64,000 bases of DNA from Methanomassiliicoccaceae archaeon (lineage in GTDB: Archaea > Thermoplasmatota > Thermoplasmata > Methanomassiliicoccales > Methanomassiliicoccaceae): positions 320,001 to 384,000 of the forward strand of contig JAXGZN010000001.1 in the NCBI GenBank assembly GCA_040776945.1. Direction: 5' to 3'. How positions within the stretch are numbered: the first letter of the stretch is position 1; each line of letters starts with the position of its first letter. The position numbers were made by a program, and so were the translations under genes. Positions 57,027-59,186 of this stretch are shown piece by piece. The notes under the pieces were generated by a model. It made no database searches and had not been told where the DNA came from. It saw only the letters and a program-made list of their open reading frames with translations.

Positions 57027-57033
57027 TTATATA
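57027..57033 (+). promoter_or_regulatory. Putative TATA box for the ilv leader/ilvB operon
   Basis: TTATATA ending 21 nt before ATG 57055, spacing consistent with a leaderless transcript starting near that ATG. Confidence 0.6.
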
Positions 57034-57054
57034 CGATTTCCGTAATTCAGGATA

Positions 57055-57126
57055 ATGATGTCAAACGCCACGAAGCGCTCTAACGTTTCTCTGGGCTTGG
57101 GCGTAGTGGTAGTATTGATTAGGTAG
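57055..57126 (+). CDS. Putative ilv operon leader peptide MMSNATKRSNVSLGLGVVVVLIR
   Basis: 23-codon ORF ending CTG GGC TTG GGC GTA GTG GTA GTA TTG ATT AGG TAG, directly upstream of ilvB; followed by a hairpin at 57126-57152. Confidence 0.7.
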   Translation: MMSNATKRSNVSLGLGVVVVLIR

Positions 57127-57174
57127 AGGCATCCAGTTCATTGGGTGACCTCGCTCATTGCAGGGGATGTTTAT

Positions 57175-58845
57175 TTGAGAGGATCAAAGGCCGTTCTCAC
57201 ACTGCTGGAAAAAGAAGGCGTCGATGTCATGTTCGGGTACCCTGGGGGCTCCACCCTAACCCTGTACGATGACATGCTGACGTCTAACATACGCCATGTG
57301 CTGGTCCGCCATGAACAATGCGCGGCGCACATGGCCGACGGGTACGCTAGGGCCACGGGAAAGATCGGAGTGTGCACCTCGACCTCCGGACCTGGCTCCA
57401 CCAACCTGATCACTGGGGTCGCCACCGCCTACGTCGATTCGTCTCCCATGCTGGTGCTCACCGGCCAGGTTACCACCTCGGCTATAGGGAACCAGGCATT
57501 CCAGGAGGCTGACTCGTTCTCCCTGATGATGCCGATCACCAAGCACAACTTCCGCCTCCTGGCCCCATCGGAGATACCGGAGGCGATTAAGCGCGGCGTT
57601 TCCATCGCCAATGCCGGGCGCAAAGGACCGGTGCACATCGACCTGCCGTCGGACGTCCAGAAGGGGGAGGTGCCTGAGGCCGAGATGAGGCGGGAGTTCC
57701 CCGAGCCGCCTCCCCTGGAGGACTTCCATGACCTGCCCGAGGCGATCAAGATCCTCCGGGCCGCGGAGCGGCCGCTGCTCCTGGTGGGCGGAGGGATCAT
57801 ATGGTCCAACGCCAGCCCTGAGGTCGTCCAGCTGGCCGAGATGCTCATGGCACCGGTGACCACCACGATCATGGCCAAGGGCGTTATCCCGGAAGAGCAT
57901 CCGCTGTCGCTAGGCATCATTGGAATGCACGGGAAGGAGGCGGCCCGGAAGGCATTCATGGAGGCCGATGTCATCCTTGCGGTCGGAACCAGGTTCTCGG
58001 ACCGTAGCTCCGGCGCGCAGTCCGAACTTCCCATGTCCACGAAGCTCATACATATTGACATCGATCCCGGCGAAGCGGGGAAGTCCGCCCGCACCCAGGT
58101 CCGCCTTGTAGGCGATGCCAAGAAGGGTCTGCGGCTCCTGATCGACGGTCTGCAGATGAGCAAGGGGGAGACCGCATGGTCCCTCCGCATCAAGGAGATC
58201 CTTAAGAACTGCGCTTGCAACATAAACGTGCCCTCGTCGCCGGTCCTCCCGCAGTTCGCCATCTTCGAGCTGAACCGGACCCTGCCCAAGGACGCCATCG
58301 TCTGCACTGAGGTCGGGCAGAACCAGATGTGGGCTGCCCATTTCTTCAAGGCGCGATATCCGAGGCAGTTCATCACCTCCGGCGGCTTCGGCACGATGGG
58401 CTTCGGGTTCCCCGCCTCGCTAGGGGCGAAGTACGCCTTCCCCAACAAGGTGGTCATCGACATCGCCGGCGATGGCAGCATCCAGATGGTCTCTCACGAG
58501 TTCGCCACGGCGGTCTCCGAGAACCTCCCGGTGGTCGTCTGCGTGTTCAACAACGGCTGGCTGGGCATGGTCCGGCAGTGGCAGAAGCTGTTCGCCGACA
58601 GGCGATACAGCGGGACGGAACTGCGTGAGAATCCGGATTTCGTCAAGCTTGCCCAGGCCTACGGGGCTGACGGCATCCATGTCGAGCGGGCATCCGAACT
58701 TCAGGAAGCGCTCAGGACCGGCATGGACGCCGGGATCCCGTTCCTGATCGATATCCACATGGACCCGGATGAGGACGTCCTTCCGATGATCCCTCCGGGC
58801 GGAAACCCAAACGCGGTCATAAGAGGTAGGTGCATATGGAAGTGA
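57175..58845 (+). CDS. ilvB: Acetolactate synthase large subunit
   Basis: FGYPGG, RHEQ, TSGPG, GPVHIDLP, GQNQMW, TPP motif GDGS...NNG; TTG 57175 after GGGGATG. Confidence 0.96.
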   Translation: MRGSKAVLTLLEKEGVDVMFGYPGGSTLTLYDDMLTSNIRHVLVRHEQCAAHMADGYARATGKIGVCTSTSGPGSTNLITGVATAYVDSSPMLVLTGQVTTSAIGNQAFQEADSFSLMMPITKHNFRLLAPSEIPEAIKRGVSIANAGRKGPVHIDLPSDVQKGEVPEAEMRREFPEPPPLEDFHDLPEAIKILRAAERPLLLVGGGIIWSNASPEVVQLAEMLMAPVTTTIMAKGVIPEEHPLSLGIIGMHGKEAARKAFMEADVILAVGTRFSDRSSGAQSELPMSTKLIHIDIDPGEAGKSARTQVRLVGDAKKGLRLLIDGLQMSKGETAWSLRIKEILKNCACNINVPSSPVLPQFAIFELNRTLPKDAIVCTEVGQNQMWAAHFFKARYPRQFITSGGFGTMGFGFPASLGAKYAFPNKVVIDIAGDGSIQMVSHEFATAVSENLPVVVCVFNNGWLGMVRQWQKLFADRRYSGTELRENPDFVKLAQAYGADGIHVERASELQEALRTGMDAGIPFLIDIHMDPDEDVLPMIPPGGNPNAVIRGRCIWK

Positions 58846-59186
58846 TAAAGATAGTCGGATGTGACTCCCCGGGCCTGTTCCAAAGGATCCTGGTGGAGCT
58901 TGGAAGAAGAAAGATCGAGGTCGAGAAGTCGTTCATGGCCAGGGAGAAGGGGAAGATCAACATAATCGTGGAGGCGGAGACCGGAAGCATGAACGGCAGG
59001 CTGCTCCATGCGATCATGGCCCTACAGGACATCGAGTCCGCGGAGTATATTGCGGAGGACTACTTCTGCTTCTGGGAGACCTCCCCGACCAAGGGATCGG
59101 GATACATCATCGCCTGCGGCCACGACAAGAACGCTGGTGAGATGCGGAGGACGGCCGAACATTGTTTATACAAAGGCACGGATTAG
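58836..59186 (+). CDS. Divergent ACT-domain protein, probable AHAS regulatory subunit
   Basis: DSPGLFQRI...RRKIEVE resembles the IlvN NxPGVL.RI...RR..NI motif; lies between ilvB and ilvC. Confidence 0.6.
   Translation: MEVIKIVGCDSPGLFQRILVELGRRKIEVEKSFMAREKGKINIIVEAETGSMNGRLLHAIMALQDIESAEYIAEDYFCFWETSPTKGSGYIIACGHDKNAGEMRRTAEHCLYKGTD

Follow-up and report, generated by a model that had tools for sequence, protein, structure and literature searches.

Leader-peptide attenuation is a textbook form of bacterial gene control that depends on translation acting on the nascent RNA. In enterobacteria, branched-chain operons are governed by leader-peptide transcription attenuators of this type (ivbL-ilvBN, ilvL-ilvGMEDA and leuL). 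In the anti-Shine-Dalgarno (anti-SD)/anti-anti-SD platforms of translational riboswitches, and in ermC-type translational attenuation, it is a ribosome or a ligand that decides which strands pair. Archaea couple transcription and translation, use eukaryote-like promoters, and have many leaderless mRNAs.

Two further bacterial systems bear on the locus described here. The leaderless polycysteine short ORFs of mycobacteria are reported to be Cys-responsive translational attenuators, in which the codon tract and the next gene's SD region base-pair (bioRxiv 10.1101/834739). For Corynebacterium ilvBNC, a uORF, or ilvB-II motif, with a three-hairpin attenuator is reported (PMC10272879, PMC11857589). 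A full-text literature search found no precedent in print for leader-peptide attenuation in archaea, and the archaeal ribosome-profiling literature that we examined mentions upstream ORFs only in general terms.

Here we describe an element ahead of ilvB in a Methanomassiliicoccaceae archaeon and its relatives. Judging from sequence, it appears to be an amino-acid sensor read by the ribosome, a type for which descriptions have until now come from bacteria alone. The window analyzed is a stretch of 64,000 nucleotides (contig JAXGZN010000001.1 of assembly GCA_040776945.1, positions 320,001 to 384,000); all positions below are those of the window, and all features lie on its + strand.

Results

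A short ORF, 57055-57126, lies between a TATA box and ilvB-ORF-ilvC and is translated as MMSNATKRSNVSLGLGVVVVLIR*, with the C-terminal residues VVVVLIR. It comprises 22 or 23 codons: the in-frame upstream ATG at 57055 contributes one extra Met, and the relatives point to the second ATG as the likelier start, giving a leader ORF of 22 codons plus TAG at 57058-57126 (MSNATKRSNVSLGLGVVVVLIR). The ORF and its run of Val, Leu and Ile codons had been noticed in a sequence-only reading of the window and are present as claimed; the putative regulatory run is Val-Val-Val-Val-Leu-Ile (GTA GTG GTA GTA TTG ATT, 57103-57120). That reading had also called these codons mostly non-preferred, which genome codon usage in open frames of at least 350 codons bears out. 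The shares are 8.9% for GTA among Val codons, 8.7% for TTG among Leu codons and 7.4% for ATT among Ile codons, so that five of the six are the rarest or near-rarest for their amino acid; that of GTG among Val codons is 39.7%.

Downstream, ilvB (57175-58845) begins with TTG, as had been proposed, and its product, the large subunit of biosynthetic acetolactate synthase, scores 674.6 bits on TIGR00118, above the cut-off of 538.35 for that family. The start codon is preceded by a Shine-Dalgarno-like GGGGAUG (57163-57169), which includes GGAUG at 57165-57169. The gene for ketol-acid reductoisomerase, ilvC, follows at 59230-60201; its start is not fixed, the frame being open from 59008. Between the two lies an ORF of 118 amino acids (58830-59186) in the position of a small regulatory subunit. 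It has no Pfam or NCBIfam family match, and its earlier label of "ACT" is thus not confirmed. The leader and ilvB frames coincide here without an intervening stop, and the genome carries a tRNA-Pyl gene. Amber read-through from the leader into IlvB was considered and rejected, as among the loci of the genus only L001 and L004 combine an open frame with a stop-to-start distance that is a multiple of three.

A search of the genome with an RNA model of the element returned a single match, this locus. Scanning the same genome for short ORFs 29-32 nt past a TATA-like box gave 143 candidates, none of them another product-matched leader ahead of a biosynthetic gene.

The TTATATA box reported earlier is found at 57028-57034, within the TATA box TTATATAC (57028-57035), and relatives conserve a GCAA-type motif ahead of it. 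Of the 29 loci whose promoter is readable, 27 have the leader start codon 30 or 31 nt from the first T of the box; L014, with a promoter masked by N, is not in this count. The exceptions are L019 (29 nt) and L011 (36 nt by eye), whose start is ATG; by eye, the distance is also 31 nt in L181, L184, L189 and L195. With its start codon 30-31 nt past the TATA box, the leader mRNA is probably leaderless. Across this genome there is no sharp TATA-like peak 30-31 nt before candidate start codons, so leaderless mRNAs are not shown to be the norm for it.

Metatranscriptome contigs from three studies run from 57072/57073 through the hairpin described below into ilvB, and one reaches beyond 59500. They begin 14-15 nt 3´ of the leader start, and past 57060, the limit that the sequence-only reading had set for the transcription start under its model; such contigs, though, cannot define a transcription start. 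Were 57072/57073 the true start, the leader start codon would be missing from the RNA. In X1, the RNA contigs leave 57052-57071 uncovered, a gap that, like the contig depths, carries no weight.

The sequence-only reading had suggested looking in relatives for a conserved short ORF with covarying pairings. All 41 ilvB upstream regions read, from five families of the order Methanomassiliicoccales, have an equivalent ORF that closes with a Val/Leu/Ile run and leads directly into a hairpin. These sequences comprise all 30 ilvB loci from 30 related genomes and 11 further loci, with L182 excluded as identical to L181. In a sixth family of the order, none of six ilvB loci has the element. ORF length ranges over 21-26 codons in the 41 sequences; 19 open with ATG and 22 with GTG, and the stop is TAG in 27, TGA in 9 and TAA in 5. 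Each has 4-7 Val, Ile or Leu codons among its last eight sense codons, with the codons used varying by family. The N-terminal half of the peptide varies freely, even within the genus. In alignment A2 (16 sequences from one family), indels within the ORF are of 3 or 6 nt; one-nucleotide differences occur between the stop and the hairpin, as in L184 versus L185. Rfam gave two matches, both with E > 3 and far below gathering scores. A DNA pattern scan of contigs was unspecific, hitting at least 120 stretches; among the matches listed, 6 of the 19 places with a following CCTC were the element.

Two helices overlap or adjoin the leader ORF. The first, P1, ties the run to the 5´ end of the transcript, a feature that the sequence-only reading had missed. 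In this helix, minimum-energy folds, pairing probabilities and covariation counts join a 5´ strand right after the start codon (57060-57071, GUCAAACGCCAC) to a 3´ strand formed by the run codons themselves (57106-57119, GUGGUAGUAUUGAU). When the 41 sequences were folded without constraint, the first 18 nt paired with the last eight codons in every one (fraction 0.27-0.80), and this was the largest partner class in 38. The second helix, P2, is the hairpin that had been seen at the leader stop, and it is part of the minimum-energy fold. It has 10 bp (57126-57152), begins at the G of the stop codon, and consists of a 5´ arm at 57126-57135 (GAGGCAUCCA) and a 3´ arm at 57142-57152 (UGGGUG-A-CCUC) with A57148 bulged. 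Four nucleotides past P2, alignments and the sequences of relatives reveal a conserved CAUUG motif (57156-57160), ATTG or a one-base variant being found after P2 in most lineages.

Covariation was assessed in A4, an alignment of 49 rows from 48 loci. Paired cells reached 81.8%, compared with 37-51% when the partners were slid, and 15 of 29 pairs had changes on both sides, counts that are inflated both by the kinship of the genomes and by the fitting of the alignment to an RNA model. The covariation score was 0.233 versus 0.128 +/- 0.007 for shuffles, none of 500 of which reached it, and alignment A3 gave similar figures. The GAGG/CCUC base of P2 is nearly invariant, in that its three inner base pairs do not change in any of the 49 rows and the outermost G-C pair is kept in 45. 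Single-sequence folding energy is ordinary at this locus (z -0.85). On a plain MAFFT alignment, RNAalifold recovered six pairs of P2 and none of P1, indicating that model-based alignments are needed; within the closest 16 sequences there is no covariation, as the helix sequences there are nearly identical. Taken with the conservation of the ORF and its run at 41 related loci, the covarying conservation of both helices is, on these comparative grounds, more than chance.

Measured from the last Val/Ile/Leu codon, the P2 core begins at 8 nt in 35 of the 41 sequences, at 9 nt in four and at 11 nt in two, while its distance from the stop codon varies (2, 5 or 6 nt). The 3´ arm of P2 resembles the 3´ end of 16S rRNA, which in this genome is GGAUCACCUCCU: positions 57143-57152 are identical to it at 8 of 10 positions. 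Compared with the GGAUCACCUC portion of the 16S 3´ end, the arm matches at 8 of 10 positions in 17 of the 41 sequences and at 7 of 10 in 19.

We modeled two ribosome positions. When the ribosome occupied the stop codon, the CCUC core was paired within -16 to +14 of ilvB at P > 0.5 in 19 of the 41 sequences; when it was stalled on the run, this happened in one. For the window's own sequence, no contact of the core with the ilvB start is predicted (P 0.01). Whether the ribosome was stalled or terminating made no consistent difference to how accessible the ilvB ribosome-binding region was (means 0.40 and 0.39, 41 sequences), and the per-position difference was at most 0.17 in 20 representatives. 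Giving up P2 costs a fold 1.6-11.8 kcal/mol in stability; any OFF state would thus be transient or kinetically trapped.

Duplex tests against the ilvB start region gave mean z values from -0.17 to +0.44 for the 5´ strand, the middle of the ORF, the P2 3´ arm with CAUUG, and the run; for the run itself, the mean was +0.36, with one of 19 sequences below -1.5. A trend appeared for the P2 5´ arm alone (mean z -1.0), its complementarity to the ilvB ribosome-binding region being marked (z < -1.5) in 6 of 19 representative lineages, this genome included. This result qualifies the earlier proposal of mutually exclusive folds in which CAUCC of the P2 5´ arm pairs instead with GGAUG before ilvB: the alternative is possible in this genome and its clade, but it is not conserved across relatives, and in this genome the hairpin fold is favored over it by 5.3 kcal/mol. 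With the run masked, the freed 5´ strand had no consistent partner, and no conserved antiterminator pairing (segment 2:3) emerged. Two pairings judged by eye were also rejected, a local UGGGUG:CGCUCA pairing past P2 and one of CAUUG with the start-codon context, each of which is kept only within subgroups. In agreement with the sequence-only reading, which saw no long U-tract terminator, a consensus scan found no intrinsic terminator between the leader ORF and ilvB, nor did inspection by eye; the sequence after P2 is CGCUCAUUG.

Discussion

We consider it likely, with a probability of roughly 0.7, that this element is a cis-acting, ribosome-read sensor of Val/Leu/Ile supply that governs ilvB-ORF-ilvC. 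Transcription would start at the AUG of 57058 or right beside it, about 31 nt past the TATA box, and a ribosome would load directly on the 5´ end of a 22-codon ORF that closes with six rare Val/Leu/Ile codons. In the free RNA, folding and covariation show these codons paired to nucleotides 3-14 of the mRNA in P1, with P2 starting at the stop. A ribosome waiting for Val, Leu or Ile tRNA would hold P1 open and halt just short of P2, given that P2 starts 8 nt past the last of these codons; the ribosome reach assumed here is taken from bacterial data. A ribosome that moves past the run to the stop would have to unwind the 5´ arm of P2.

How this position might be relayed to ilvB is a separate matter. 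We tentatively prefer a translational output, the masking and unmasking of the ilvB ribosome-binding region, even though we give it somewhat less than an even chance if the element is a sensor at all. P2 can be viewed as an SD-like 5´ arm (GAGG...AUCC) joined to a 3´ arm like the 16S rRNA 3´ end. Passing or terminating ribosomes would free the anti-SD-like 3´ arm to mask the ilvB ribosome-binding region; in the clade of this genome, it may instead be the freed 5´ arm that pairs with the ilvB SD after ribosome release. Under starvation, P2 would stay closed and ilvB would be translated.

The same sensor could possibly act through transcription or mRNA stability. In the first case, P2 formation or the coupling of ribosome and RNA polymerase would decide termination or pausing before ilvB, with termination either intrinsic or brought about by an archaeal termination factor. 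Such an output would profit from P1, which on finished RNA would block re-initiation, so that chiefly the first, co-transcriptional ribosome would read the leader, as attenuators need. T-rich stretches occur near the ilvB start in this genus (TGTTTATTTG) and in the P2 loops of many relatives. Nevertheless, we regard a transcriptional output as unlikely, for there is no hairpin-plus-T terminator, and by eye no T-run between P2 and ilvB is conserved across lineages. The geometry would moreover have P2 forming under starvation, the wrong sign for a terminator, and the RNA contigs span the whole leader into ilvB with no separate short leader contig among them, even if contigs cannot show levels.

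An output through mRNA stability, in which P2 and a ribosome halted close to the 5´ end would jointly shield the ilvB mRNA from 5´-to-3´ decay under starvation, fits the place of the element at the extreme 5´ end, which P1 buries, and the lack of a convincing switch of the ribosome-binding region in the folding models. It is improbable nonetheless, as P1 would protect the 5´ end even without a stalled ribosome, and the invariant GAGG/CCUC base and the 8-nt spacing would be left unexplained.

Two other readings dispense with the sensor. The RNA could be a structured 5´ leader with no coding role, bound by a protein or by a ligand, the ORF being a by-product of its sequence; this would suit its very high nucleotide conservation (55 invariant columns in the 16 A2 sequences of one family), the covariation of P1 and P2, and the first position of the RNA contigs. 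What makes us more doubtful still of this explanation is that, for all the changes in codons, stop codons and length, there is no loss of the reading frame, of the constant spacing from TATA box to start codon, of the stop beside P2 or of the run; indels within the ORF come in multiples of three, and Rfam families provide no match. That the ORF makes a small hydrophobic peptide acting in trans is most improbable: the C-terminal half is indeed conserved and hydrophobic, but this amounts to only about seven hydrophobic residues, encoded in the run by rare codons and coinciding with the RNA helices, while the N-terminal half is free to vary.

Returning to the sensor, we give slightly better than even odds to a fuller version: a ribosome-mediated archaeal amino-acid sensor on a leaderless mRNA, with the run paired to its own 5´ end and a copy of the SD/anti-SD duplex relaying the status of the run to ilvB. 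The pairing of the run with the 5´ end would have mainly the first ribosome read the leader, and the duplex copy would sit exactly one ribosome reach past the last regulatory codon. The element bears on whether archaea use the logic of leader-peptide attenuation, and it is conserved, precisely spaced, and short enough for direct testing. If the reading is true, it would provide an example of a leaderless mRNA gated by its own coding sequence, and for the engineering of amino-acid production in methanogens it would mark a control point of ilvBNC that needs removal.

Set against the attenuators of ivbL, ilvL and leuL, the element shares a short ORF upstream of ilvB, a codon run cognate to the product, helices that overlap the ORF, and the position of a ribosome as the presumed signal. 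In contrast to them, it has no intrinsic terminator and no conserved antiterminator alternative, the codons that would do the regulating make up the 3´ strand of its first helix rather than being in segment 1, its mRNA is probably leaderless, and its host is an archaeon with a TATA-box promoter. Corynebacterium ilvBNC, a Gram-positive case, is likewise reported to have a conserved uORF with hairpins ahead of the operon; it differs in being bacterial, in having a leader before the uORF, and in its terminator model. As in riboswitch and ermC platforms, the CCUC strand here can pair either with an upstream GAGG or with the SD of a gene, yet a ligand-binding domain is absent and the folding models agree with such a switch only in part.

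The closest working analogy is with the mycobacterial polycysteine ORFs. In both, the first cistron, leaderless there and probably so here, closes with cognate codons, a terminator is lacking, and the downstream gene has its own SD. Unlike the polycysteine tract as described there, the run here pairs with the mRNA's own 5´ end and has no complementarity to the ilvB ribosome-binding region, and a separate SD/anti-SD-like hairpin lies past the stop. What is new at this locus is the probable leaderlessness, P1 with its covariation, the prevailing 8-nt spacing of P2, and a 3´ arm that resembles the end of 16S rRNA.

An ilvB leader with a run of branched-chain codons

The locus reads as the sequence-only reading had described it, with a short ORF, a TATA box and a hairpin ahead of ilvB, all borne out by translation, domain matches and the minimum-energy fold. 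The leader ORF (57055-57126, + strand; translation MMSNATKRSNVSLGLGVVVVLIR*) follows a TATA box (TTATATA, 57028-57034) and precedes ilvB (57175-58845, + strand, TTG start), whose product has three thiamine-pyrophosphate enzyme domains and scores 674.6 bits for NCBIfam TIGR00118, the biosynthetic acetolactate synthase large subunit, above that model's cut-off of 538.35. A 118-aa ORF 3´ of ilvB matched no Pfam or NCBIfam family, and ilvC comes next (TIGR00465, 434.8 bits); the divergent gene upstream of the leader is an archaeal type II glyceraldehyde-3-phosphate dehydrogenase (GAPDH). The G+C content of the window is 58.9%, and the genome's 16S rRNA matched the archaeal model, with the 3´ end GGAUCACCUCCU. 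Outside the window (G000:C1:8385-9992, + strand) lies another thiamine-pyrophosphate enzyme homologue, which shares 33% identity with IlvB and contains one in-frame TGA.

The leader ORF ends in the run GTA GTG GTA GTA TTG ATT (57103-57120). Most of these codons are rare in the genome, as had been suspected: over 606 open frames of at least 350 codons, GTA makes up 8.9% and GTG 39.7% of Val codons, TTG 8.7% of Leu codons and ATT 7.4% of Ile codons.

Comparison with relatives carries the case for function. ilvB was present in all 41 related genomes examined, and we read the 350 nt 5´ of it for the best 30 loci (ilvB identity 100% down to 65%). All 30 have a short ORF with a terminal Val/Ile/Leu run, then a hairpin, then the ilvB SD and start, and 11 added loci, from genomes reached via the RNA model or via ilvB, share the layout of ORF, run and hairpin. 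In this 41-sequence set, which excludes one locus (L182) identical to another (L181), the ORF is 21-26 codons long, starts with ATG (19) or GTG (22), stops with TAG (27), TGA (9) or TAA (5), and 4-7 of its last 8 sense codons encode Val, Ile or Leu. The C-terminal tails differ from family to family (VVVVLIR, AVVIIIS, VGIIIR, VIVVL, VVVVI, SVVMTVI and VIVVLG), and the N-terminal half varies freely, even inside the genus. When the 16 closest sequences are aligned, gaps within the ORF measure 3 or 6 nt, and the stop-to-hairpin interval tolerates 1-nt differences (locus L184 versus L185). Such a pattern is typical of a translated frame whose product, apart from the run, matters little.

In the window, the leader ORF and ilvB share a frame over 57124-57177, with the TAG at 57124-57126 as the sole stop between them. 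A tRNA-Pyl(CUA) gene is present in the genome, where ~25% of long open frames end in TAG; amber read-through at the leader TAG would yield a leader-IlvB fusion. This same-frame layout is not conserved, being found among the genus loci in L001 and L004 only.

Distribution

With the first RNA model, 44 of the 151 genomes of the order matched at E <= 0.01, a lower bound, since one genus of family f3 and loci of family f4 have the ORF and hairpin yet score weakly or not at all. By family within Methanomassiliicoccales, this genome excluded, the matches were 22/23 in f1, 1/1 in f2, 11/47 in f3, 1/4 in f4, 0/1 in f5, 8/10 in f6 and 0/64 in f7. The model search found one copy in this genome. In f7, the leader ORF was absent from 6/6 ilvB upstream regions, which have only a TATA box and a short SD-bearing leader. 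Outside the order, the element was found in none of three sampled genomes of the phylum with an ilvB match at E <= 1e-100.

Several side observations concern related loci. Seven of the ten f7 genomes with an ilvB match have two ilvB-like genes (G029, G033, G041, G044, G047, G053 and G061), each ~50-52% identical to the window's IlvB and separated by ~100 to 2,000 bp in six of the seven and by ~5 kb in G041. Two AT-rich genomes from another order of the same class (G212, locus L197, and G224, locus L198) share the motif ATCTAACATCT(A/G)(C/T)GGC followed by a T-run, ~60-110 nt 5´ of ilvB and overlapping the ends of tiny ORFs (MAKRLI*, VKSVSRFI*); this may be a different leader. Elsewhere in the window's own genome (G000 C2:641578-641604, + strand), an 8-codon ORF, MKCPIIII*, starts 29-32 nt after a TATA-like box; 74 nt separate its end from a 619-aa ORF whose product by eye resembles a membrane-anchored solute-binding protein. 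The short ORF may be another leader with an Ile run, or a chance occurrence within an AT-rich spacer.

Promoter and transcript

The distance from the first T of the TATA box to the leader start codon is 30 or 31 nt in 27 of the 29 loci whose promoter can be read; the other two have 29 nt (L019) and, by eye, 36 nt (L011), and the L014 promoter is masked and outside this count. By eye it is 31 nt in four added loci. Since the archaeal TATA box is centred ~26-27 nt before the transcription start, transcription would begin on the leader start codon, and in the window this spacing favours the second ATG (57058). A genome-wide check gave no sharp TATA-like peak at 30-31 nt from candidate start codons.

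Contigs from three metatranscriptome studies (X1, X2 and X8) all start at 57072 or 57073 and extend into ilvB, one reaching beyond 59500, which shows that a single RNA carries ilvB, the hairpin and the 3´ portion of the leader. The 5´ ends of transcripts are commonly under-covered and contigs cannot define a transcription start; we read these as placing a transcript boundary somewhere in 57052-57073. Another X1 contig (56634-57051) runs from within the GAPDH gene through the spacer and past the leader TATA box, and may be DNA carry-over, an upstream transcript or an antisense transcript.

Two conserved helices

In the minimum-energy fold of 57040-57200, the hairpin P2 pairs 57126-57135 with 57142-57152, A57148 bulged. 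That segment folds with ordinary energy (z -0.85, equalled by 37/200 shuffles), so the case for structure rests on relatives; Rfam has no family for the leader element. A second helix, P1, joins the 5´ end of the ORF to the run: with sequences folded singly, GUCAAACGCCAC (57060-57071) pairs with GUGGUAGUAUUGAU (57106-57119) in the window. In unconstrained folding, 0.27-0.80 of the first 18 nt pair with the last 8 codons, their largest partner class in 38 of the 41 sequences. Compensating changes in P1 can be seen by eye: L012 has UCAAAAU/GUUUUGA, L014 has UCAAGAU/GUCUUGA, L017 has GUUAGUC/GACUAGC (versus GCUAAUC/GAUUAGC in L019), L024 and L027 have CCCAC/GUGGG, and L029 has AACAACAAC/GUUGUUGUU.

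A covariance model, built on 16 sequences and rebuilt on 30, produced an alignment of 49 matches, drawn from 48 of 58 sources, and the helices covary. Because this alignment is model-fitted, includes one spurious reverse-strand match and draws on kin, its figures lean in the structure's favour: 81.8% of cells are paired, versus 37-51% after partners are shifted by 1-3 columns, covariation scores 0.233, versus 0.128 +/- 0.007 in 500 shuffles (0/500 reach 0.233), and 15 of 29 pairs changed on both sides. In an earlier alignment, 82.8% of cells were paired and covariation scored 0.159 versus 0.115. At the P2 base, GAGG/CCUC, the three inner pairs are identical in 49/49 rows and the outermost G-C in 45/49; the upper stem is variable. 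A (C/G)AUUG motif 4-6 nt 3´ of P2 (57156-57160) is kept in most lineages, and no pairing partner for it was found in the window or relatives.

Counted from the first base of the final Val/Ile/Leu codon, the P2 core GAGG (or AAGG) begins 8 nt further on in 35 of the 41 sequences (9 nt in 4, 11 nt in 2); from the stop codon it is 2, 5 or 6 nt away. Where the run directly abuts the stop, a 2-3 nt spacer replaces the missing Arg, Ser or Gly codon; thus the conserved distance is the one measured from the run, not from the stop. In bacteria, the ribosome unwinds mRNA to a point ~11-13 nt past the first base of its P-site codon. By this measure, a ribosome whose A site holds the last run codon would only just reach P2, and one on the stop codon would have opened most of the P2 5´ arm.

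Proposed sensor and output

We suggest that a ribosome stalled on the run would hold P1 open and leave P2 closed, and one beyond the run would open P2. As the operon is biosynthetic, closed P2 should mean ON. Once the leader is translated to completion, a freed anti-SD-like arm would cover the ilvB ribosome-binding region. In the window, the P2 3´ arm, GGGUGACCUC, has the same base as the 16S 3´ end, GGAUCACCUC, at 8/10 positions (among the 41 sequences, 8/10 in 17, 7/10 in 19 and 5-6/10 in 5), and the 5´ arm in turn resembles an SD (GAGG...AUCC). When the model places a ribosome on the stop codon, the CCUC core pairs with ilvB -16 to +14 at P > 0.5 in 19/41 (mean 0.44), versus 1/41 (mean 0.04) when the ribosome is halted at the run.

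The clade to which the window belongs is not predicted to form this pairing (P 0.01); its P2 5´ arm could pair with the ilvB SD instead, the CAUCC:GGAUG fold of the sequence-only reading. That fold is possible in this genome (z -2.5) and is not general: of 19 representative lineages, just 6 have z < -1.5. Its energy is the minimum in one sequence context and lies 5.3 kcal/mol above that of the P2 fold in a different one.

The earlier interpretation, that stalling on the run controls ilvB, thus fared differently in its two parts. The reading of the leader as a branched-chain amino-acid sensor is well supported by the comparison with relatives. For the output, predicted overall accessibility of the ilvB ribosome-binding region does not change consistently between the stalled and terminating states, and leaving out P2 lowers fold stability in every case (by 1.6-11.8 kcal/mol), so we only infer this step. 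Given the sensor, we regard masking of the ribosome-binding region as possible, at somewhat less than even odds. Output through transcription is a rival; the terminator scan of the leader found no bacterial-type terminator, in agreement with the earlier remark that no U-tract terminator is visible, and no T-run conserved across lineages was seen by eye after P2. Output through mRNA stability is listed as a further rival.

Comparison with known systems

The element would work like a leader-peptide attenuator. Our literature search found no archaeal leader-peptide sensor; supplementary files might list such ORFs, and passages of archaeal ribosome-profiling papers mention upstream ORFs only in general terms. 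Two features that define classical enterobacterial attenuators are a terminator and a conserved antiterminator alternative. The present element has no terminator and no conserved antiterminator alternative, and so differs from the classical type on both. The closest design is that of the mycobacterial polycysteine leaderless short ORFs, in which the codon tract is partnered with a downstream SD (10.1101/834739), whereas here its partner is the mRNA 5´ end.
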